From a virus (Duplodnaviria; Heunggongvirae; Uroviricota; Caudoviricetes), in the IMG/VR virus record IMGVR_UViG_2778261670_000003: DNA of 37,551 bases. The stretch is one strand, 5' to 3'. Position 1 is the first letter of the stretch. Each line of letters opens with the position of its first letter. A program made the position numbers and the translations under genes. Positions 5,753-18,132 of this stretch are shown here, in pieces. The notes beneath the pieces are model-generated. The model saw nothing but the letters and a program-made list of their open reading frames with translations, made no database searches and had not been told where the DNA came from.

Positions 5753-6606
5753 GCACCATCCTGAAATGGGCGGGAAATAAAACCGCCATAATGTCCGAAC
5801 TGAAAAAGCATCTTCCTGCTGGCCCGCGACTGGTTGAACCTTTCGCGGGATCCTGTGCAGTGATGATGGAGACGGATTACCCTAGCTATCTTGTTGCGGA
5901 TATTAATCCTGATTTAATCAACCTCTATAAAAAGGTTGCTGCTGATTGTGAGGCGTTTATATCTCGTGCCAGAGCTTTATTTGAGGAAGCAAACAGGGAG
6001 GTGGCTTATTACAACATAAGGCAGGAGTTTAATTACTCCACTGAAATTACTGATTTCATGAAAGCGGTATATTTTCTGTATCTCAATCGTCATGGTTACC
6101 GTGGGTTATGTCGCTATAACAAGAGCGGGTATTTCAACATTCCCTACGGTAATTATAAAAATCCGTATTTCCCTGAAAAAGAAATTCGCGCATTTGCAGA
6201 GAAAGCCCAGCGAGCAACGTTTATCTGCGCCAGCTTTGATGAAACGCTGGCGATGCTGCAGGTGGGGGATGTGGTGTATTGCGATCCGCCTTATGACGGT
6301 ACGTTTTCCGGTTATCACACTGACGGCTTCACTGAAGATGACCAGTATCACCTGGCATCTGTTCTTGAATATCGATCATCAGAAGGTCATCCAGTCATTG
6401 TTTCTAACAGTGACACATCCCTGATCCGTTCGCTGTATCGAAATTTCACTCACCACTACATCAAGGCAAAACGCAGCATCGGCGTGTCGGCTGGCGAGAG
6501 TAAATCTGCAACAGAAATCATTGCTGTTTCCGGAGCGCGCTGCTGGGTGGGATTTGATCCTTCGTGTGGCGTGGATAGTTCTGCTGTGTACGAGGTGCGC
6601 GTATGA
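5749..6606 (+). CDS. dam: DNA adenine methyltransferase (Dam family, N6-adenine)
   Basis: N-terminal LKWAGNK, FAGS motif and catalytic DPPY motif. ATG at 5749 overlaps the previous stop (ATGA). The ORF track start at 5635 is an out-of-context N-terminal extension. Confidence 0.9.
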
Positions 6607-9017
6607 GTCATGACGATATGAGCAACTCTAGCGGCTTTAACGAGGCCGCTGCAGCATTTTCATGGAACGGCCCGAAAAAGGCCATTAACCCTTATCTGGA
6701 CCCGGCGGAAGTTGCGCCGGAGTCTGCACTTTCAAACCTGATCACTCTGTACGCTGCCGATAATGAGCAGGAACAGCTGCGCCGCGATGCACTGAGTGAG
6801 CAGGTCTGGGAGCGTTATTTCTTTAATGAATCCCGTGATCCTGTCCAGCGCGAAATGGAGCAGGATAAGCTCATTAGCCGGGCAAAGCTGGCGCATGAGC
6901 AGCAGCGTTTTAATCCAGACATGGTCATTCTGGCTGACGTCAACGCCCAACCTTCCCATATCAGCAAGCCGCTGATGCAACGTATTGAATACTTCAGCAG
7001 CCTGGGCAGGCCAAAGGCTTATTCTCGCTATTTGCGTGAGACGATTAAGCCATGTCTGGAACGACTGGAGCATGTACGCGACAGTCAGCTATCCACTTCT
7101 TTTCGCTTTATGGCAAGCCATGAAGGGCTGGACGGCCTGCTGATCCTGCCTGAAATGAGTCAGGATCAGGTGAAACGCCTGTCTACCCTTGTCGCTGCGC
7201 ATATGAGCATGTGTCTTGATGCCGCTTGTGGTGATTTGTACGCCACCGATGATGTTAAGCCAGAAGAAATCCGCAAGACATGGGAAAAGGTGGCAGCGGA
7301 AACCCTACGTTTGGATGTCATCCCGCCTGCGTTTGAGCAACTCCGTCGGAAAAGAAACCGCCGTAAACCAGTGCCCTATGAACTCATTCCGGGCTCGCTG
7401 GCGCGTATGCTGTGCGCCGACTGGTGGTATCGGAAATTGTGGAAGATGCGTTGCGAATGGCGGGAAGAGCAGTTGCGTGCTGTCTGCCTGGTCAGCAAAA
7501 AAGCATCTCCCTATGTCAGCTATGAAGCTGTGATGCATAAACGTGAGCAGCGCCGTAAGTCGCTGGAGTTTTTCCGTTCTCATGAACTGGTGAACGAAGA
7601 CGGAGACGCGCTGGATATGGAAGATGTGGTAAACGCCAGCTGCAGCAACCCGGCGCATCGCCGCAATGAGATGATGGCCTGTGTTAAAGGTCTGGAGCTT
7701 ATCGCGGAAATGCGCGGTGACTGCGCCGTTTTCTACACCATTACCTGTCCGTCACGTTTCCATTCCACGCTCAATAACGGCAGACCCAACCCGACCTGGA
7801 AAAACGCGACGGTAAGACAAAGCAGCGATTATCTGGTCGGTATGTTTGCTGCATTTCGTAAGGCGATGCACAAAGCCGGGTTGCGCTGGTATGGCGTGCG
7901 GGTGGCTGAGCCGCATCACGACGGCACAGTTCACTGGCACCTGTTGTGTTTCATGCGCAAAAAAGACCGCCGCGCCATTACTGCATTGTTGCGTAAGTTT
8001 GCTATCCGTGAAGACCGCGAGGAGCTGGGCAATAACACTGGGCCGCGCTTTAAGTCTGAGTTGATTAACCCGCGCAAAGGTACGCCAACAAGCTACATCG
8101 CGAAATACATCAGTAAGAACATTGACGGGCGTGGTCTGGCTGGCGAGATCAGCAAGGAAACGGGGAAATCCCTGCGTGATAATGCTGAATACGTTAATGC
8201 CTGGGCGTCTCTGCATCGTGTTCAGCAATTCCGCTTCTTTGGCATTCCGGGGCGTCAGGCTTACCGTGAACTGCGATTGCTGGCTGGTCAGGCGGCAAGG
8301 CAACAGGGGGACAAAAAAGCAGGTGCGCCGGTACTGGATAACCCGCGCCTTGATGCAATCCTGGCTGCTGCTGATGCTGGTTGTTTTGCCACCTACATCA
8401 TGAAGCAGGGCGGCGTACTGGTTCCCCGCAAATATCACCTGATCAGAACCGCTTATGAAATCAACGAAGAGCCGACCGCCTATGGCGATCACGGCATTCG
8501 TATTTATGGCATCTGGTCACCCATTGCAGAGGGCAAGATCTGCACTCATGCAGTGAAGTGGAAAATGGTTCGTAAGGCCGTTGACGTTCAGGAGGCGGCA
8601 GCCGACCAGGGCGCTTGCGCCTCTTGGACTCGTGGCAATAACTGTCCCCTTGCTGAAAATTTAAACCAACAAGGGAAAGACAAATCAGCTGATGGGGACT
8701 CCAGAACGGATATTACCCGTATGAATGACAAGGAGTTGCACGATTACCTGCACAGTATGAGCAAAAAAGAGCGCCGGGAACTGGCTGCAAGGTTACGCCA
8801 GGTGAAACCGAAACGGCGTAAAGACTACAAACAGCGAATTACAGACCATCAGCGACAGCAGCTCGTCTATGAACTGAAGTCTAGGGGATTTGATGGCAGC
8901 GAGAAAGAAGTCGATTTGCTCCTTCGCGGCGGCAGTATTCCGTCAGGAGCAGGCCTGCGTATCTTCTATCGGAACCAGCGTCTGAAGGAAGATGATAAGT
9001 GGCGGAACCTGTATTAA
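6603..9017 (+). CDS. Replication initiation endonuclease (P2 gpA-like rolling-circle initiator)
   Basis: 804-aa product with HUH-type VHWHLL motif. Position downstream of early genes as in P2/186. Confidence 0.9.
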
Positions 9018-9109
9018 TTACGCGGGTTAACAATTCGTGCTCTTAATAATACCAGGCATATCAGGCCGATGAACGTAAAAAAACGTTTTACATCAGTAAG
9101 ATTATTATA

Positions 9110-9129
9110 TACTGTAAATATAAACAGTG
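9110..9129. promoter_or_regulatory. LexA (SOS) box TACTGTAAATATAAACAGTG
   Basis: CTGT-N8-ACAG with an AT-rich spacer, about 40 nt upstream of the 9170 ORF. A second degenerate half-site follows at about 9127-9146. Confidence 0.6.
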
Positions 9130-9169
9130 GTTATGTATACAGTATTGTTTTGGTGTCATAGGAGGAAAG

Positions 9170-9358
9170 ATGCAGGACTATTTTTTGGAGTCTTTGAAGC
9201 TCCAGCGCATTGATTTTTTTCTTAAGCTTGTAGCGGCTAGTGAGTGTAGTGATGAAGAGAAGGGGCTGGCTCTGCAGTGGGTTTCTGAATTGACTGATGA
9301 ACTCATGGCAAAAATCAGAAGCCACGAATACAACCGCTCAATGGATGTCATCAGCTGA
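9170..9358 (+). CDS. Small hypothetical protein, first ORF of SOS-controlled module (Tum-like N-terminal part?)
   Basis: Strong GGAGG SD at 9161-9165, ATG at 9170; 62 aa. Confidence 0.5.
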   Translation: MQDYFLESLKLQRIDFFLKLVAASECSDEEKGLALQWVSELTDELMAKIRSHEYNRSMDVIS

Positions 9359-9368
9359 GGTGACTTTT

Positions 9369-9602
9369 ATGCGCATTGAAATAATGATCGATAAAGAGCA
9401 GAAGATTAGCCAGTCTACCCTGGACGCCCTTGAATCCGAGCTTTACCGCAATCTGCGCCCCCTGTATCCCAAAACGGTAATTCGCATTCGCAAAGGTAGC
9501 TCTAACGGTGTGGAACTAACCGGACTGCAACTGGATGAAGAAAGAAAACAAGTGATGAAAATTATGCAGAAGGTGTGGGAGGACGACAGCTGGCTGCATT
9601 AA
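9369..9602 (+). CDS. dinI: DinI-family protein (186 Tum-like C-terminal antirepressor domain)
   Basis: 77-aa product MRIEIMIDKEQ…, similar in length and pattern to E. coli DinI (MRIEVTIAK…). GAGGTG SD upstream. LexA box upstream. Confidence 0.8.
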   Translation: MRIEIMIDKEQKISQSTLDALESELYRNLRPLYPKTVIRIRKGSSNGVELTGLQLDEERKQVMKIMQKVWEDDSWLH

Positions 9603-9610
9603 GAAACGTT

Positions 9611-9640
9611 GCCCCCAGGAGGATTCATTCTGATGGGGGC
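9611..9640 (+). terminator. GC-rich hairpin (GCCCCCA-16nt-TGGGGGC) after dinI-like gene
   Basis: Seen directly; weak T-tract (tagttt) follows. Confidence 0.3.
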
Positions 9641-9800
9641 TAGTTTGGGCAATGAGTGAAATAAGGCGTAAGGTGGGCGGTTATTTTGATAAGTGATCGT
9701 CCGCTTTGTGTCAGAAGCAGAAGCAGAAGTGGGAGTGTCTGAGACTCTCTAAAAGTTGATGATTCACTTACAAAACCATTTTCCTGATGGATGCTTACAC

Positions 9801-10136
9801 TTACGAATGATTATTCTGTTTAGTCTTCATGAGAAAATCCCGAATCTTTGCCAAGTTTGAGTTTTCGGGGATTGAATCCATGTACGGATCACGCTCAAAC
9901 ACTAATTGCTCAGATTCAACGAAAGCCTGCCACTCTACTGGGTCTAGCTCAAATCCCATTGCTGTCATATCACTTTCATCTTCCCCCTCGATCCAGTGGA
10001 CTAAATAAAACAATTCATCATCAGGAGAATCATCCTCACCATCGACAATATCAACATCGGTTACAGTGATACGTAGGGTGGGATCGATTTTTGAGACATA
10101 AATTCCTAACTGTGGTATAGGGGGAATATTGTTCAT
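9801..10136 (-). CDS. Small highly acidic protein (111 aa), unknown function
   Basis: AGGAG SD 5 nt upstream of ATG at 10136. Very D/E-rich (DGEDDSPDDE, EGEDESD). Divergent from the retron. Confidence 0.7.
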   Translation of the reverse strand: MNNIPPIPQLGIYVSKIDPTLRITVTDVDIVDGEDDSPDDELFYLVHWIEGEDESDMTAMGFELDPVEWQAFVESEQLVFERDPYMDSIPENSNLAKIRDFLMKTKQNNHS

Positions 10137-10588
10137 GGAAACTCCTTTTATTGGTGCTTGCTATTTGAATAAAAATACGCCAAACAGAGTGTTAACTGTG
10201 AATATGGAAAGAATCGTTGTAAGTACCCCGCTTAGGTGTCCCATTCTATTTTAGAGGTTCTCGTGCATATGGATTATGTTATCTGAAAGTTAACTTCCGC
10301 TTCCCGTTCACAGCGAACATTCATCTTTGTAAACCCGTATGATCCGTTTTTCAAGTGGCCATTCAGATACGGATTTTCACTTCCTTGACAGTGCATGACT
10401 ATGCTGCATGAAATCGCATGATCGATTGAGGATCGTCTTTGCTCAGATCCGCCAGAACTGGCGGGCTTTTGCTCATGTCATGCATGTGCATGAAAACCAC
10501 TGCATAAAGCGGGCAGGCGTGGCGGGGATACGAGCGCGCGCTGAGCTGCATTCACTTGAATAATCCGTATGTTAGTGCTAGCCTAGCT

Positions 10589-10743
10589 GTGCCCTTAGCA
10601 GGAAAGTACATTCAATATGTTACTTTCTAGTGGTTGGTGTTTAGCCAACTCGTATGGATTGCTTGGTATCTCGACACAAGTTAGCCTTGTGTCATTTATA
10701 GACACCAGGCTAACTTGTGTCTCGGGAACTCTTGTATGGGCAT
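10589..10743 (+). ncRNA. Candidate retron msr-msd non-coding RNA (boundaries approximate)
   Basis: Ec86-like GTGCCCTTA-G motif at 10589-10598 (candidate a1 plus branching G). Imperfect complement TATGGGCAT at 10735-10743 (candidate a2). Two msr-like stem-loops at 10602-10627 and 10632-10647. A perfect 14-bp inverted repeat with nested hairpin at 10673-10721 is msd-like. Lies directly upstream of the effector and RT on the same strand. Confidence 0.4.
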
Positions 10744-11669
10744 TAATTGTTATGTGGTTTAAACATCCTAGATATTTACGAGCAAAAGAAAATTTTATTT
10801 CAAGTTTTTTTCCAAGTAACTTGAATTCTTTTAATTATATCCTGCCAAAAGTATTATTTATTTGTGGAGGAGATGAGACTTATTGTTCAAATAGAGGGAT
10901 GCTGGAAAAATATATTGCTAAGCATCATAAAGAATTTGTTACTTTTCGAGCAGAATTAGCATGGGACGTAATTAGCAATTTAGGAACTCATAGTAATGTG
11001 AATGCGTTATCACTTGAAGAATGGCTTGCGGATTTTTCTGATGTGGTAATTATTCTCGTAGAGAGTTATGGCACTGTAGCTGAATTGGGCGCATTTTCAT
11101 TAAGTCCTGTTTTACGTAAAAAACTTCTTCCTATATTAGATAAAAAGTTTGAAAGTCATAAGTCATTTATCAATACAGGGCCCGTAAAATGGGTTGATAG
11201 TGAATCCAAATTTGGCCCTACAATCTATACTGAATTTGAGACAATTTTAACGTGTATGCCTAAAATAAATGAAAGGCTAAATAGGAAAGTTCAATCAAAC
11301 ATAACTAATACAAATTCAATAGGTGATTACAAATATTCACCAAAAATTTTTTTATTTTTTGTGCTCGTTGTTATATCTTCTTTAGGTCCAATAACAATTC
11401 CTGAGATTATTAATATCACAGGTAGGTTGATAAATTATAAAATTAATAAAAATATTTCATTTGTTGTTTCTATTGGAGTTGCTCTTGGGATTTTTAAGGA
11501 AAGTCGATTTGAGGGCGTGACCCATTATTCATGTGTCGATTATATTAAATTTTTTAATCATGAAAAGATGAAAGATTTAGTTGAAAGTATTCAACGAAGT
11601 AGAGCTAGATCATTATCCGATTTAATAATGATATCTAAATTCAAAGCAGAATTAGAAAGGATCATGTGA
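10617..11669 (+). CDS. Retron effector, nucleoside 2-deoxyribosyltransferase-like (NDT-like) with C-terminal hydrophobic segments
   Basis: ESYGTVAELGA resembles the NDT catalytic-glutamate motif, after a beta-strand-like KVLFICGG. Two C-terminal hydrophobic stretches. AT-rich. The 10617 ATG has an AGGAAA SD but lies inside a predicted RNA hairpin; the true start may be ATG 10752, just after the candidate a2. Confidence 0.7.
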   Translation: MLLSSGWCLANSYGLLGISTQVSLVSFIDTRLTCVSGTLVWALIVMWFKHPRYLRAKENFISSFFPSNLNSFNYILPKVLFICGGDETYCSNRGMLEKYIAKHHKEFVTFRAELAWDVISNLGTHSNVNALSLEEWLADFSDVVIILVESYGTVAELGAFSLSPVLRKKLLPILDKKFESHKSFINTGPVKWVDSESKFGPTIYTEFETILTCMPKINERLNRKVQSNITNTNSIGDYKYSPKIFLFFVLVVISSLGPITIPEIINITGRLINYKINKNISFVVSIGVALGIFKESRFEGVTHYSCVDYIKFFNHEKMKDLVESIQRSRARSLSDLIMISKFKAELERIM

Positions 11670-11670
11670 T

Positions 11671-12600
11671 ATGTTAATTGAGTATCTAGCTAAAGTTTTA
11701 CTGTTAGAAGCTGATTTTATATTAAAAGTTGCAAATGATGCTAACTCGCATTATGGTAAATTTTCTGTACCTAAAAAAGGCGGTGGGACAAGAATCGTCT
11801 ATCAGCCCTCTAAAGAATTAAAAGTTTTGCAGAGATTACTTCATGATAATGTTCTGTCGAAATTGCCGATTCATCCAAATGCTGTAGCATATCAGCAGGG
11901 TTCATCAGTGTTCAAACATGCAAGCATTCACAAAGCTAAACGTTTTATGCTTAAGATGGACTTTGAAGGTTTTTTTGATTCAATTAAGGAAAGTGATGTT
12001 GAGAGATTTATAAACGACAACAAGCATTTCTTCAGTGATGATTGGTCAAAGGATGATACTGATTTGCTGGTAAAAATAGTATGCTTTAACGGGAGACTGA
12101 CTATGGGTGCTGTTAGTTCCCCTGTGGTAAGCAATGCTATATGCTATGAATTAGATCATATATTGAATGAATTTTGTCTTTCAAAAGGTGTAACATATAC
12201 ACGCTATGCTGATGATATGTACTTCTCAACAAACGAAGAAAATGTATTGAAGCAAATACCACCTTTTTTACGCTCGAATTTAAAAACTTTAAAATACCCA
12301 TCAAAACTATGGATTAATAGAAAAAAGACACTGCATATGTCAAAGAAAAATAAAATGATGGTTACGGGTGTGACTTTGACAACAGATGGTGGAGTATCCT
12401 TAGGGAGAGATAAAAAAAGGATGGTTAAATCGCTTATTTTTAAATGGGAGGCTCTTGATGAGAAGAAAAGGCTATTTCTTCAAGGATATTTATCGTATTG
12501 CAAAAGTGTTGAGCCATTATTTATTAATAGGCTTTGTGCGAAATATTCATCAGAGCTGATTGATGAAATCCAGAGATATCAACCTGAAGTATCAGAATAA
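11671..12600 (+). CDS. Retron-type reverse transcriptase
   Basis: Motifs VYQPSKELKVLQ, LKMDFEGFFDSI, YTRYADDMYFS (YADD catalytic) and MVTGVTLT (retron VTG motif) align with Ec86 RT as I recall it. 309 aa, the typical retron RT size. Confidence 0.9.
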   Translation: MLIEYLAKVLLLEADFILKVANDANSHYGKFSVPKKGGGTRIVYQPSKELKVLQRLLHDNVLSKLPIHPNAVAYQQGSSVFKHASIHKAKRFMLKMDFEGFFDSIKESDVERFINDNKHFFSDDWSKDDTDLLVKIVCFNGRLTMGAVSSPVVSNAICYELDHILNEFCLSKGVTYTRYADDMYFSTNEENVLKQIPPFLRSNLKTLKYPSKLWINRKKTLHMSKKNKMMVTGVTLTTDGGVSLGRDKKRMVKSLIFKWEALDEKKRLFLQGYLSYCKSVEPLFINRLCAKYSSELIDEIQRYQPEVSE

Positions 12601-12606
12601 CGTGTG

Positions 12607-12637
12607 TGCGCATGAAAATTTCCATGCGCATTTTCTT
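12607..12637 (+). terminator. Rho-independent terminator (TGCGCATG-8nt-CATGCGCA then TTTTCTT) after the RT gene
   Basis: Perfect 8-bp stem followed by a T-run; sits between convergent RT and portal genes. Confidence 0.6.
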
Positions 12638-13661
12638 AAAAACAGTAGTCATTAAATGAAATAATTTCTTTTCCAGCCCAGTTATTCAGTGATTCAAAAT
12701 TCTTTTGCAATGGCATTAACTCATTCCGCACAAACACTTTGCTTGCCTTCTCCACATCCCCAAATCCCCCAACATTATTAGGCATAATCCCCATCATCTG
12801 CGGCGGCACGCGGTGTGCCGCCATCATGTCATCGCGACTAACATTTTTGATATTCAAAAACTCATCCTTCGCCGCGACTTCTGACAATGGGATGATCTGA
12901 AGCCCGTCTTTTTTGCCGTTAGGCGAGTACATAAACAGGTTGCGGAAGTTGCCTGGCCCTTTGGCGCTTTTCATCGCGTTGCGGAGGTTGTTCACATCCT
13001 CCTGGTTCTGAGCGGCATCGGTCATGTACATTATGAATCCTGCATGGCTGCCATTAATATAATATTTGCGTCGGAACAGCGTGGCGGACTCGTTGAGCAG
13101 GGCTGACGGAATGGCAGAAAGATAACCGGGCAGGCCGTAGATCTCCTGGTTGATATCGGGTTCCATCAGATGAAAGATGCTGCCTTTCGTGAACTGATAC
13201 GGCTGGGTTGTCATACTGTATTGCACAAACCAGTAGGTATCCAGGTCTAACCCGCGTCGGGTGTATTTTGCCAGTGCAGGCTCAAGGGCGATAACTTCAC
13301 CGAAGCGGTTCGTGCGTTTCTCCAGGTAGGCGTTACCAAAAACCAGATAGTCCTGCACAAAACGCGAAAAAGCCTGCTGGCTGAGCAGCGGGTGAGGGAT
13401 GTAGGTGCTGGTCAGAATGTTGCACTTCACTGCAATCGGTGAGCTGTGATGCACGGCGGCGCGGAAGGTTCGCGCCAGTCCGTCGAAACTCACAGGCGGC
13501 TCATACCAACGATCCATCTGTACGCATTCCACATAGTCCAGCAGTTCGCGGCGGTCCAGAACAGGAACGGGATCACCGAAGCTGAATGCTTCGGCTGAAG
13601 TTTGGTTTTTATGCTGGATCTGATTCGTCGCCGCAGCGCGTTTTTTCTTACTCTTTCCCAT
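12636..13661 (-). CDS. Portal protein (P2 gpQ-like)
   Basis: 341-aa product, size and position match P2 Q. ATG at 13661; the ORF track begins one codon earlier at a TTG. Confidence 0.9.
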   Translation of the reverse strand: MGKSKKKRAAATNQIQHKNQTSAEAFSFGDPVPVLDRRELLDYVECVQMDRWYEPPVSFDGLARTFRAAVHHSSPIAVKCNILTSTYIPHPLLSQQAFSRFVQDYLVFGNAYLEKRTNRFGEVIALEPALAKYTRRGLDLDTYWFVQYSMTTQPYQFTKGSIFHLMEPDINQEIYGLPGYLSAIPSALLNESATLFRRKYYINGSHAGFIMYMTDAAQNQEDVNNLRNAMKSAKGPGNFRNLFMYSPNGKKDGLQIIPLSEVAAKDEFLNIKNVSRDDMMAAHRVPPQMMGIMPNNVGGFGDVEKASKVFVRNELMPLQKNFESLNNWAGKEIISFNDYCF

Positions 13662-15427
13662 CAAAAAATCTCCACAATATTGCTGGTATTGGCGGACTCG
13701 CCCTGCAGCGGTTCGTTAAACAGTGCGTGCATGGTTGCCCAGGCCAGATCGGCATGGCTGGCTTCTTCGCTGCGGCTGGCTTCATAGGTCGGGCGGTTGC
13801 CGCTGGCGGTGGTGGCGCGACGGATTGCCATAAATGACTGCGCTATGTCGGTGTGTCCGGCGTCAAACTCCAGACGGCGGTGACTGATAATGTCGTAGGC
13901 CTTGAGTACCAGGGCGTTTTTAACGTTGGGGTTGTAGACAAACTCCCGGACGGCTGGAAAAAACGCTTTCACGTTCTCGTAAACCCCGTGGCCGACACCT
14001 GTCGAGTCGATGCCGATGTAGGTCACGTTGTACTGCTCGGTCAGTTTTTTGATGGCGTCAGCCTGGGCGCGGAAGTCCATCCCGCGCCACTGGTGACGCT
14101 CAAGAATGCGGAACTTGCCGCCCGGCACGGCTGGCGGTGCCACCACCACGCATCCGGCGCTGTCGCCGTTCTGCGTACCTTTGGCCGGGTCATAACCGAT
14201 CCACACTTCGCGCCAGCCAAACGGGCGCAGTGCCAGTGCATGAAAGTCGGTCCAGACTTCCCAGCTGTCCACCATGCACGCCTGCAGCTCGCTGAGCGGG
14301 AACACGGACGCGAGATCGTCCACGAACTCGCACATCAGCAGGTTTTGGTATTCGTCCGGGCTGTACTCCATGCGTAGCTGGTCGAGGTCGAACAGGTTAC
14401 AGCCGCCGCGCACCGCATCTTCCACGGTGACTATCTGGCGGTATTGCCCGTCAGCGCACAGCAGGCCGGGGGCCAGGTTGTTGTGGGACAGGTCGATGTC
14501 CACCTTATCGGCTTTGTTGCGTCCACGGTTGAACAGCGCACCGGACCAGAACGGATAAGCACTGTGGGTCAGGCTGGATGGCGTGGAAAAATAGGTTTGT
14601 CGCCATTTTTTGTGAATAGCCATACCGGAAGCCACTTTGCGCAGCTCCTGGAATTTCGGTATCCAGAAATATTCATCCAGATACAGGTTGCCGTGGTAAC
14701 TCTGGGCCGTGCGGGCATTGGTGCCGAGGAAGTAAAGCGTGGCCCCGTTAGGAAGCACCATCGGATCGCCTTTCAGCTCCACCTCCACTTCTTTGGCGAA
14801 GTCGATGATGTACTGCTTAAAGACGTGGGCCTGTGCCTTACTGGCGGAAAGGAAAATCTGGTTACGCCCGGTAAGCAGGGCGTCAATCAGGGCTTCACGG
14901 GCAAAGTAAAAGGTCGCGCCGATCTGGCGTGACTTCAGCAGGTTGCGGATGCGGTTGGTTTTTCCGGCTTCCCACCAGTGGCGCTGGTAGTTGAACATGG
15001 AGGAATGGAAGATTTCTTCCAGCTTCTCAATCTGCTCATCGGTGAAAACATTCTTTTCCGGCTGACGGCGTGGGCCTTTGTTGCGGTTGGCGACGTTAGG
15101 GTTTAAGTCGGCTTCGTTGCCGCCATTGTTAAACTTGCCGATCCGCGCGTGGCGCTCCGACTGGCGCGCCAGCAGGTCAATCTCTTTGAAATCTTTCCCT
15201 TCTTTGTGCTCCTTCATGATGAGCTGGCAGTAGCGTGCGGCGGTGGTGAGCTGCATCTGATCCAGCGGCCCATAGTCACCCCACTTGTCGCGTTTTTTCC
15301 AGCTGTGAACGGTTGCAACTTTCTCGCCCAGCATTTCAGCTATGCGGGCTACGCGGTATCCCTGAAAGTACAGCAGCATGGCCTGCCGACGGGGATCGAG
15401 ATCTGCGGGTGTCAGTGTGGTGTTCAT
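13661..15427 (-). CDS. Terminase large (ATPase) subunit (P2 gpP-like)
   Basis: 588 aa, co-oriented with portal. P2 P is about 590 aa. Confidence 0.9.
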   Translation of the reverse strand: MNTTLTPADLDPRRQAMLLYFQGYRVARIAEMLGEKVATVHSWKKRDKWGDYGPLDQMQLTTAARYCQLIMKEHKEGKDFKEIDLLARQSERHARIGKFNNGGNEADLNPNVANRNKGPRRQPEKNVFTDEQIEKLEEIFHSSMFNYQRHWWEAGKTNRIRNLLKSRQIGATFYFAREALIDALLTGRNQIFLSASKAQAHVFKQYIIDFAKEVEVELKGDPMVLPNGATLYFLGTNARTAQSYHGNLYLDEYFWIPKFQELRKVASGMAIHKKWRQTYFSTPSSLTHSAYPFWSGALFNRGRNKADKVDIDLSHNNLAPGLLCADGQYRQIVTVEDAVRGGCNLFDLDQLRMEYSPDEYQNLLMCEFVDDLASVFPLSELQACMVDSWEVWTDFHALALRPFGWREVWIGYDPAKGTQNGDSAGCVVVAPPAVPGGKFRILERHQWRGMDFRAQADAIKKLTEQYNVTYIGIDSTGVGHGVYENVKAFFPAVREFVYNPNVKNALVLKAYDIISHRRLEFDAGHTDIAQSFMAIRRATTASGNRPTYEASRSEEASHADLAWATMHALFNEPLQGESANTSNIVEIF

Positions 15428-17481: not shown

Positions 17482-18132
17482 ATGAGCCTGAGTCCCGCAC
17501 GGCAGCATCGCCTGCGCGTTCAGGCTGAACAGGCCGCCCGCGAGGGCGGCAGCGTTCGCCACGCGTCGGGCTATGACCTGATGCTGCTGCAACTGGCGGA
17601 AGACCGCCGCCGTCTCAAGGGCGTTCAGTCCACGGTGAAAAAAGCGGAAATCAAGGTGGAGCTGCTGCCGAAATATGCCGCCTGGGCGGAGGGCGTCCTG
17701 GCTGCCGGAGGCGCTCAACAGGATGACGTGCTGATGTACGTGATGCTGTGGCGCATTGATGCCGGAGATTATGCCGGGGCGCTGGAGATCGGGCGTCATG
17801 CCCTGCGTCATGGCTGGGTGATGCCGCTGGGTAACCGCAACGTGCAGACCGTGCTGGCAGAGGAAATGGCAGACGCGGCGCAGAGCGCAATGCTTGCCGC
17901 CACCGGCTTTGATGCCGATCTGTTGCTGCAGACGCTGGAGCTGACAGACGGTCTGGATATGCCGGACCAGTCACGGGCGCGTCTGCATAAAGCGATTGGC
18001 GCTGTCCTGAGTGAAAGCAACCCGGCTTCCGCCCTTAATCATCTCAACCATGCGTTACAGCTCGATCCCCGCTGTGGCGTGAAAAAAGACAAACAGCAGC
18101 TGGAGCGCAGACTGCGCAATGACAGCCGCTGA
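17482..18132 (+). CDS. Terminase small / endonuclease subunit (P2 gpM-like)
   Basis: 216 aa following the capsid gene, as in P2. Confidence 0.8.
   Translation: MSLSPARQHRLRVQAEQAAREGGSVRHASGYDLMLLQLAEDRRRLKGVQSTVKKAEIKVELLPKYAAWAEGVLAAGGAQQDDVLMYVMLWRIDAGDYAGALEIGRHALRHGWVMPLGNRNVQTVLAEEMADAAQSAMLAATGFDADLLLQTLELTDGLDMPDQSRARLHKAIGAVLSESNPASALNHLNHALQLDPRCGVKKDKQQLERRLRNDSR

Follow-up and report, generated by a model that had tools for sequence, protein, structure and literature searches.

A probable P2-family cos site beside a retron in a 186/Fels-2-like prophage

In the P2 family of phages, the cos sites have GC-rich 5′ ends of 19 nt, and a cos region of ~55 bp that is conserved among P2, P4, 186, and their relatives is needed for packaging, according to the statements in PMC3931495 and PMC9594776 that cite Ziermann & Calendar (1990). 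The satellite P4 is packaged by the terminase of P2 and is reported to share with P2 little beyond this ~55-bp cos core (PMC9122126, PMC9594776). A defence hotspot has been described in P2-like phages at the variable gpA-gpQ (portal) locus directly beside cos, and retrons are among its contents (Rousset et al., 2022, PMC9122126).

In this work, we analysed a stretch of 37,551 nt of viral DNA (IMG/VR record IMGVR_UViG_2778261670_000003; the window hereafter) and, within it, the segment 10380-10560 upstream of a retron. The initial annotation had described this segment as a structured, GC-rich spacer that could be a regulatory leader, an insulating terminator, or a second small RNA. Sequence comparison now makes it very probable that a 186/Fels-2-like prophage of the P2 family (Peduoviridae) has its cos site at 10391-10541. 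As such, the segment represents a familiar type of element at its familiar location, namely a P2-family cos beside a known defence hotspot, and it belongs to the phage backbone, being neither a leader nor a regulator of the retron.

Gene context and the candidate cohesive end

The window is a P2-family (186/Fels-2-like, Peduoviridae) prophage, and an identical locus is present in E. coli Combat13F7. A second copy of the locus, on the 'plasmid' pCombat13F7-1, was left out of the evidence because it is chromosomal DNA copied with many frameshifts and no independent replicon. In the gene order of the window, a Dam methylase gene comes first, ahead of the gene for a gpA-type replication endonuclease (6603-9017, + strand), a small ORF together with a DinI/Tum-like gene (stop of the DinI-like gene at 9602; DinI confirmed by Pfam), and a hypothetical gene (9801-10136, − strand). 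Beyond the segment and the retron lie the gpQ/W-like portal gene (12636-13664, − strand), identified by Pfam Phage_portal and annotated as such by RefSeq in the identical E. coli locus, and the gene for the gpP-like large terminase (13661-15427, − strand), identified by Terminase_6N/6C and Terminase_5 (PF03237, PF17289, PF06056) and by annotation. The scaffold and capsid genes separate the latter from the gene for the gpM-like small terminase/endonuclease subunit (17482-18132, + strand; PF05944 Phage_term_smal, E = 2e-40), an identical copy of which is annotated as 'terminase endonuclease subunit'. Intact gpM-, gpP-, and portal-type genes were thus found by Pfam within the window, that is, the cognate terminase is encoded by the same element as the segment.

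The candidate cohesive end, GGCGTGGCGGGGATACGAG, occupies 10516-10534 on the + strand, between the gpA-like gene and the portal gene, and reads toward the portal as in the P2 and 186 records. It agrees with the annotated cos of 186 (NC_001317, 1-19) in 15/19 positions, with cosL of P2 (NC_001895, 1-19) in 14/19, with the Smp131 ends quoted in PMC3931495 in 18/19, and with bases 1-19 of Salmonella phage SEN8 (NC_047753), annotated there as 'putative cos site', in 19/19. The sequence fits the P2/186/P4-type form GGCG(A/T)GGCGGGG-N7, the last six bases of the overhang being TACGAG here versus AAGCAT/C in 186 and P2. The window has a single copy of it, and shuffled sequences have none, even when three mismatches are allowed. 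In the SEN8 record, the last 125 bases align to 10391-10515 of the window and the break of the record falls exactly at 10515/10516. 

For the comparison of the surrounding sequence, the annotated cos ends in the records of 186 and P2 were joined right-to-left and then set against the window. The joined ends of 186 read ...GTGCATGCAAC-AGGTGCATTG-TTTTGCATGCG...CGCCAGAGCTGGCG...TCATGCAACTGCATTAAAACCGACCCATAAAGTGGGCA, followed by the cohesive end GGCGTGGCGGGGAAAGCAT and by TGCGCGC; the window reads, collinearly, ...GTGCATGAC-TATGCTGCATGAA-ATCGCATGATC...CCGCCAGAACTGGCGG...TCATGCATGTGCATGAAAACCACTGCATAAAGCGGGCA, followed by the 19-mer and by CGCGCGC. The flanks therefore align along with the cohesive end, from the TGCAT boxes through a CGCCAG-AG-CTGGCG dyad and AAAACC..CATAAAG(T/C)GGGCA to the closing yGCGCGC. 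This collinear homology to the joined ends of 186 and P2 indicates that 10516-10534 is the counterpart of the 19-nt cohesive end, and the cut positions in this phage are predicted, by analogy with 186, to lie at its two borders.

Conserved island, repeated boxes, and variable cargo

A scan of IMG/VR with the pattern GGGCRGGCGWGGCGGGGA yielded at least 120 loci. After reference loci had been added and duplicates had been dropped together with three chance matches in unrelated GC-rich DNA, there were 118 distinct P2/186/P4-type cos regions among the matches listed, comprising 47 with the cos type of the window (…GGGGATACGA…; window-type loci) and 71 of other P2/186/P4 types. The core, which can be written as ATGCA-nn-TGCAT-k-AAAAC ... 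AAGCGGGC, the 19-mer, and yGCGCGC, aligned without gaps with 186, P2, and P4 and with the 118 loci among the matches listed. The flank directly to the left of the predicted top-strand cut, AAAGCGGGCA (10506-10515, + strand), was invariant or nearly so in 118/118 of these listed loci.

When identity to the window was followed position by position over the 47 window-type loci among the matches listed, it fell sharply, within one or two bases, at 10390/10391 and at 10541/10542, which delimits the cos module as an island of 151 bp (10391-10541). Blastn searches against SopEPhi, Yersinia MLG42, and Klebsiella ST15-OXA48phi14.1 gave an isolated match at exactly 10390/1-10541; for these three elements, the matches to the window cover the gpA/DinI region, the 151-bp island, and the portal gene, and nothing in between. 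In the E. coli W-type prophages, homology ends at ~10544. The check proposed in the initial annotation, to set the locus beside that of related prophages with different cargo, thus exposed a cos island between unrelated cargo. To the right of the island there is a GmrSD gene in E. coli W, a TIR-domain gene in Klebsiella phage ST15-OXA48phi14.1, two unknown ORFs in SopEPhi, hypothetical and HNH endonuclease genes in SEN8, nothing in MLG42, and a retron in Klebsiella phage 4LV2017 and in the window. On this portal side, the only conserved bases are CGCGCGC (10535-10541, + strand), and variable cargo starts at 10542. The left flank of the island (9613-10390) is a second variable slot. Among the matches listed, the median distance from cos to the portal gene was 1794 nt in the window-type loci, with values below 300 nt in 4/31, versus 174 nt in the remaining loci of P2/186 type, in which the spare DNA is on the gpA side; in P2 itself, the old/tin cargo is on the gpA side of cos. 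Taken as a natural 'deletion series', the 47 listed window-type loci, which keep only 10391-10541, support the view, short of proving it, that the module may be sufficient for packaging.

The base composition of the segment was also reconsidered. It is correct that the segment differs from the retron genes, with a GC content of 53% for 10380-10560 versus 33% for the retron (10542-12635). However, the GC content of the phage backbone is 50.5% over the whole window, 55% in the portal/terminase genes, and 53-55% in the neighbouring phage genes. The segment therefore has the composition of the backbone, and it is the retron, not the segment, that is the compositional outlier.

Within the island, five boxes occupy fixed positions (10392, 10405, 10415 in the form CGCATG, 10480/81, and 10487). 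The three distal boxes, TGCATG at 10392-10397, TGCATG at 10405-10410, and CGCATG at 10415-10420 (all + strand), have conserved GCAT positions. The proximal boxes, TCATGCA-TG-TGCATG followed by AAAAC (10478-10497, + strand), are part of the core common to P4, and TGCATGAAAAC in this stretch is invariant across the window-type cos clade among the matches listed. GCAT was found at the distal box positions in 44-45/47 window-type loci and in 35-60/71 of the others; counted over the 118 loci, it was present at 10488 in 118/118, at 10416 in 105, at 10406 in 99, and at 10393 in 79 (again among the matches listed). On the + strand, TGCAT occurs five times in 131 nt versus 0.15 expected (P about 5e-7), and this is the densest cluster in the 37.5 kb of the window. 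The boxes are visible in the right ends of 186, P2, and the satellite P4, the last of which shows the same boxes, dyad, and core as the window. The presence of the boxes in both P2 and P4, two elements that are reported to have essentially nothing but cos in common, makes recognition by the terminase their most likely role. On the model of lambda cosB, the TGCAT boxes may be the recognition repeats of the gpM-like terminase, and the dyad, together with the boxes, would be part of the terminase-binding region.

The retron next to the island appears to be a self-contained unit. Its predicted promoter (+ strand) consists of a −35 element, TTGAAT, at 10556-10561, a spacer of 17 nt to the hexamer, and an extended −10 element, TGc-TAGCCT, at 10576-10584; TTGAAT/TTGAAC/TTGAGA and TGnTAnnnT/TATAGT are found at the same spacing upstream of the retrons of Pectobacterium, Yersinia, and Amphritea. 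These chromosomal homologues have no cos nearby and align with the window from 10553 on. No alignment to the non-phage retron homologues was obtained upstream of 10553, and the retron unit therefore stops short of the cos module. The msr-msd ncRNA (10591-10741, + strand) comprises a1, GCCCTTA, at 10591-10597, a2, TATGGGC, at 10735-10741, and an msd stem at 10673-10721, and its branching G is probably at 10598. A consensus fold of four ncRNA homologues contained 42 pairs, and compensatory changes were seen in 12 of these. The msd stem was strongly covarying, and the a1/a2 stem was kept with one compensatory CG-to-UA change. Downstream are the genes for the retron St85-family effector (10752-11669, + strand), with a start (ATG at 10752; MWFKHPKY) that is conserved in homologous retrons and with a RefSeq annotation in the identical E. 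coli locus, and for the reverse transcriptase (11671-12600, + strand; RVT_1, E = 6e-23; RefSeq annotation). Judged by these comparisons, the retron carries a conserved promoter and an ncRNA of its own, downstream of cos.

Other readings of the segment

The elements noted in the initial annotation are all present where it had placed them, namely TTGACA (10385-10390) and, after a spacer of 18 nt, TGAAAT (10409-10414), an 8-bp inverted repeat (TGCATGAC at 10392-10399 and GTCATGCA at 10477-10484), a 9-bp inverted repeat (ATACGGATT at 10367-10375 and AATCCGTAT at 10562-10570), and a hairpin with a T-tract (10449-10470). The first of these could make the segment a promoter and regulatory 5′ leader for the retron, given a perfect −35 hexamer that is under-represented in the window (8 occurrences versus 24 expected) and a −10-like hexamer 18 nt downstream. 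However, TTGACA lies five bases outside the island and is found in 2/47 window-type loci and 0/71 others among the matches listed, and TGAAAT, which belongs to TGCATG box 2 as its tail, is present in 9/47 listed window-type loci and is TGAGAT in most relatives. TGAAAT matches TATAAT in 4/6 positions and has no A at position 2, for which reason the consensus scan rejects the pair; consensus promoter scans of 8900-11200 called no promoter. We therefore judged the pair (10385-10414, + strand) to be fortuitous. In addition, the terminator-like hairpin and the packaging cut site would intervene between such a promoter and the retron, Klebsiella phage 4LV2017 has the retron (96.5% identity) without this left flank, the same module precedes unrelated cargo in other prophages, and the retron has its own promoter (10556-10584), conserved in non-phage relatives. 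The proposal of a retron promoter or leader was accordingly abandoned as highly improbable. It is no more credible that the inverted repeats hold a structured RNA or mark an independent small RNA. Although several such repeats exist, a scan of 9000-13000 against Rfam 15 with E up to 10 gave no match in 10380-10560, folding was no better than that of dinucleotide shuffles (MFE z +0.24 for the + strand and +0.60 for the − strand), and covariation was essentially nil, and neither the description of the segment as structured, in the sense of RNA, nor the suggestion of a second small RNA could be upheld. The 8-bp repeat keeps only its palindromic TGCATG core across relatives, with the six inner pairs kept and the two outer pairs unpaired in 27-29/48 sequences; it is a by-product of the palindromic TGCATG boxes. 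The 9-bp repeat is specific to the window, its arms being found in 2/47 and 1/47 loci among the matches listed, and its left arm has nearer local partners. The Rfam matches listed elsewhere in the scan were far below gathering scores.

The 9-bp repeat had also been put forward as an alternative a1/a2 pair of the retron. This candidate was rejected: both arms lie upstream of msr and are absent from Klebsiella 4LV2017, which carries the same retron (96.5%), and the a1/a2 pair at 10591-10597 and 10735-10741 is backed by a compensatory change. Two short ORFs run across the segment (10408-10563 on the + strand and 10399-10551 on the − strand), and equivalents are annotated as 'hypothetical protein' in Yersinia MLG42 and Klebsiella ST15-OXA48phi14.1. 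That they encode small proteins is nevertheless extremely unlikely. Of the 44 listed window-type loci that keep the start of the + strand ORF, 22 have a stop within 22 codons. Packaging would split this ORF, whose 3′ end lies inside variable cargo, and substitutions show no codon periodicity in either frame (182/177/170 for the + and 178/182/205 for the − frame). Since these cos-spanning ORFs are neither conserved nor periodic in their codons, the 'hypothetical protein' annotations are probably spurious.

The hairpin requires a different assessment, as a role in termination is compatible with the cos identity of the module. The dyad CCGCCAG-AA-CTGGCGG (10449-10464) is followed by G-CTTTTGCTC (to 10470, + strand), and both terminator scans called the site. 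In the clade, the consensus is a GC-rich stem of 7-9 bp, with 93% of cells paired in an alignment of 48 sequences, and CTTTT comes next in ~40/47 window-type loci among the matches listed; one-sided changes are compatible with G-U pairing more often on the + than on the − strand (12 versus 7). It is, moreover, the only + strand terminator-like site between the stop of the DinI-like gene (9602) and the retron, and it may therefore terminate rightward transcripts, those of the SOS/DinI-like operon or of the left cargo, before cos and the portal-side cargo. On the other side, the tract is short, with just four T's, and a sub-group of the clade carries GCTTTCCGGCC in its place. The dyad, GCCAG-N-CTGGCG, is older than the tract, as the homologous dyads of 186 and P4 have no T's (the tract is absent from P2 as well), and in 186 a separate terminator, t95b, is annotated upstream of the boxes. 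Covariation in the stem is almost nil (4 cells) and thus uninformative, so that a dyad conserved at the DNA level fits the data equally well. What stands of the proposed insulating terminator is therefore a conserved hairpin and T-tract; a working intrinsic terminator, as a secondary function of the cos module, is a possibility that we regard with some doubt.

Two GATC (Dam) sites at 10420-10423 and 10431-10434 are a further feature of the clade, being present in 44/47 and 45/47 window-type loci and at these positions in 0/71 of the others among the matches listed. The T-tract and this GATC pair, both inside the cos module, are specific to the clade and absent from P2, 186, and P4, and they are its least ordinary residue. 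Homologues of Dam are encoded upstream in 13/16 window-type loci versus 3/25 others (among the matches listed), an association that is confounded by shared ancestry. In phage P1, Dam methylation of the pac site gates packaging. It is conceivable, but on the present comparisons unlikely, that the cos of the Fels-2/SopEPhi-like clade gained two regulatory layers, an embedded terminator and a GATC pair working with the phage Dam, which would make packaging Dam-gated or shielded from transcription, while its defence cargo moved to the portal side. The terminator of such a module would sit between the distal and the proximal boxes.

Packaging model and comparison with known cos sites

On the reading of 10391-10541 as cos, we propose that during lytic growth the module would be recognized by the gpM-like small and the gpP-like large terminase, which would bind the box/dyad region on the gpA (replication-gene) side; the protein that reads the module is probably the gpM-like product of 17482-18132. 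Two nicks 19 bp apart, one in the top strand 5′ of 10516 and one in the bottom strand after 10534, would give the virion DNA 5′-protruding cohesive ends of the sequence GGCGTGGCGGGGATACGAG, which would anneal and be ligated after injection so that the site is formed again. With nicks at these positions, the virion DNA would start with the 19-nt overhang and seven conserved base pairs, the retron promoter beginning 22 bp in, and its other end would be the box region. On the portal side, only the 7 bp CGCGCGC would be needed. Because the module must stay intact, it would survive as a conserved island of backbone GC content between two slots for cargo, and the retron would be an occupant of the portal-side slot that brought its own promoter and ncRNA.

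These results leave the current understanding of such phages unchanged, and their use lies mainly in annotation. The segment should be annotated as a prophage cos site, neither as part of the retron nor as a gene; ORFs spanning cos have been entered in some public phage records. The left edge of the retron cargo can be set at 10542, and the retron promoter starts 22 bp from the predicted left terminus of the packaged DNA. The limits of the cos unit, 151 bp reaching from −125 to +26 as counted from the first overhang base, follow from natural variation and could be of help in designing cosmids or transducing particles suited to these phages. The notion of a hotspot next to cos is refined to two slots flanking an invariant island. 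The clade-specific T-tract, the GATC sites, and the association with Dam may hint at a control of packaging linked to methylation or transcription, with the reservation that this association is confounded by ancestry.

The cos of phage lambda comprises a nicking site, cosN, and cosB with its R sites, and its ends are 12 nt long. The window may be likened to it in that the putative nicking site has several short repeats to one side, which would bind the small terminase subunit, and it differs in having no sequence similarity to lambda and ends of 19 nt versus 12 nt. The cos sites of 186, P2, and P4 occupy the equivalent place, with the replication region on one side and the portal gene on the other, and have the same orientation as in the window and the same flanks, TGCA-nn-TGCAT-k-AAAAC...AAGCGGGC on one side and yGCGCGC on the other. 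They also share with the window the three distal TGCAT boxes, the GCCAG/CTGGC dyad, and a cognate terminase of the gpM/gpP type, and over its first 13 bases (GGCGTGGCGGGGA) the cohesive end of 186 is identical to that of the window. The clade of the window differs from 186, P2, and P4 by the addition of a T-tract after the dyad and of two invariant GATC sites, and from 186 and P2 in holding its cargo mostly on the portal side, whereas the others hold it on the gpA side. In SEN8 (Felsduovirus; NC_047753), the 19-mer is identical to that of the window and the record breaks exactly at the predicted top-strand cut. SopEPhi, RE2010, Klebsiella 4LV2017, and Yersinia MLG42 have the same type of cos as SEN8 and the window. 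The modules of the SEN8 type are 83-91% identical to 10391-10541 of the window and differ in their cargo, apart from that of Klebsiella 4LV2017, which has the same retron. Finally, the hotspot of Rousset et al. (2022, PMC9122126) is the same cos-adjacent variable locus with defence systems that include retrons. In that description the whole gpA-gpQ interval is one hotspot, whereas here it is resolved into two slots split by the 151-bp island.

Retron promoter, ncRNA and effector start

The retron promoter comprises a -35 element, TTGAAT (10556-10561), and an extended -10 element, TGc-TAGCCT (10576-10584), and is followed by the ncRNA, with a1 at 10591-10597, a putative branching G at 10598, the msd stem at 10673-10721 and a2 at 10735-10741. 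A consensus fold built with homologues revealed compensatory changes in 12 of the 42 consensus pairs of the ncRNA, and an Rfam scan of the promoter/ncRNA stretch (10556-10741) returned no family match. The RefSeq start of the St85-family retron effector (10617) gives 350 aa, and over 10617-10752 the reading frame from there crosses the msr-msd ncRNA, whereas the ATG at 10752 (MWFKHPKY), which gives 305 aa, is the start kept in the Pectobacterium, Yersinia and Amphritea homologues. The operon is ended by a terminator-like plus-strand hairpin, GTGCGCATGAAAATTTCCATGCGCAT followed by TTTCTT (12606-12631), which stops 5 nt short of the portal stop codon; no recognisable counterpart of the tQ/tW terminator, annotated between the portal gene and cos in P2 and 186, was found in the window.

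Database annotations over the locus

'Hypothetical protein' ORFs are annotated over the cos modules of two public phage records (2518-2661 in L011 and 2519-2728 in L012). These ORFs are probably spurious, because a coding test across cos detected neither conservation nor codon periodicity. The 45-kb 'plasmid' pCombat13F7-1 (NZ_CP019246.1) consists of a second prophage copy together with the chromosomal genes potFGHI, artPIQMJ and rimK. It carries many frameshifted or partial CDSs, its retron effector is shortened and no RT CDS is annotated after the effector; the record resembles a product of misassembly more than a replicon.

Sequence motifs and variable slots around cos

Two GATC sites at 10420-10434 (further coordinates given with them, 10446-10449) are kept in 44-45 of the 47 cos modules of the ATACGAG clade, the loci sharing the cos type of the window, and GATC is absent at these two positions from the 71 other P2/186/P4 cos sites (both among the matches listed). 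Of the clade loci, 13 of 16 have a Dam methylase homologue upstream, compared with 3 of 25 others, an association confounded by common ancestry. The hexamer TTGACA, which the initial annotation had picked out at 10385-10390 as a perfect -35, is scarcer than expected in the whole window (eight on both strands, against 24 +/- 5 from shuffles).

The stretch 9613-10390, on the gpA side of cos, is a second variable cargo slot. It contains a 111-aa minus-strand ORF (9801-10136) that is common to the window and E. coli W-type prophages and has no Pfam match, as well as a local hairpin (~10335-10379) contributing the left arm of the 9-bp repeat (10367-10375/10562-10570) that had been proposed as an alternative a1/a2 pair. 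The cargo side of cos varies by clade in the 118 cos loci compared (L013-L132 and references, among the matches listed). Among these matches, the ATACGAG clade has a median of 1794 nt between cos and the portal gene and of 798 nt between gpA and cos; in other P2/186-type loci the corresponding medians are 174 and 1965 nt.
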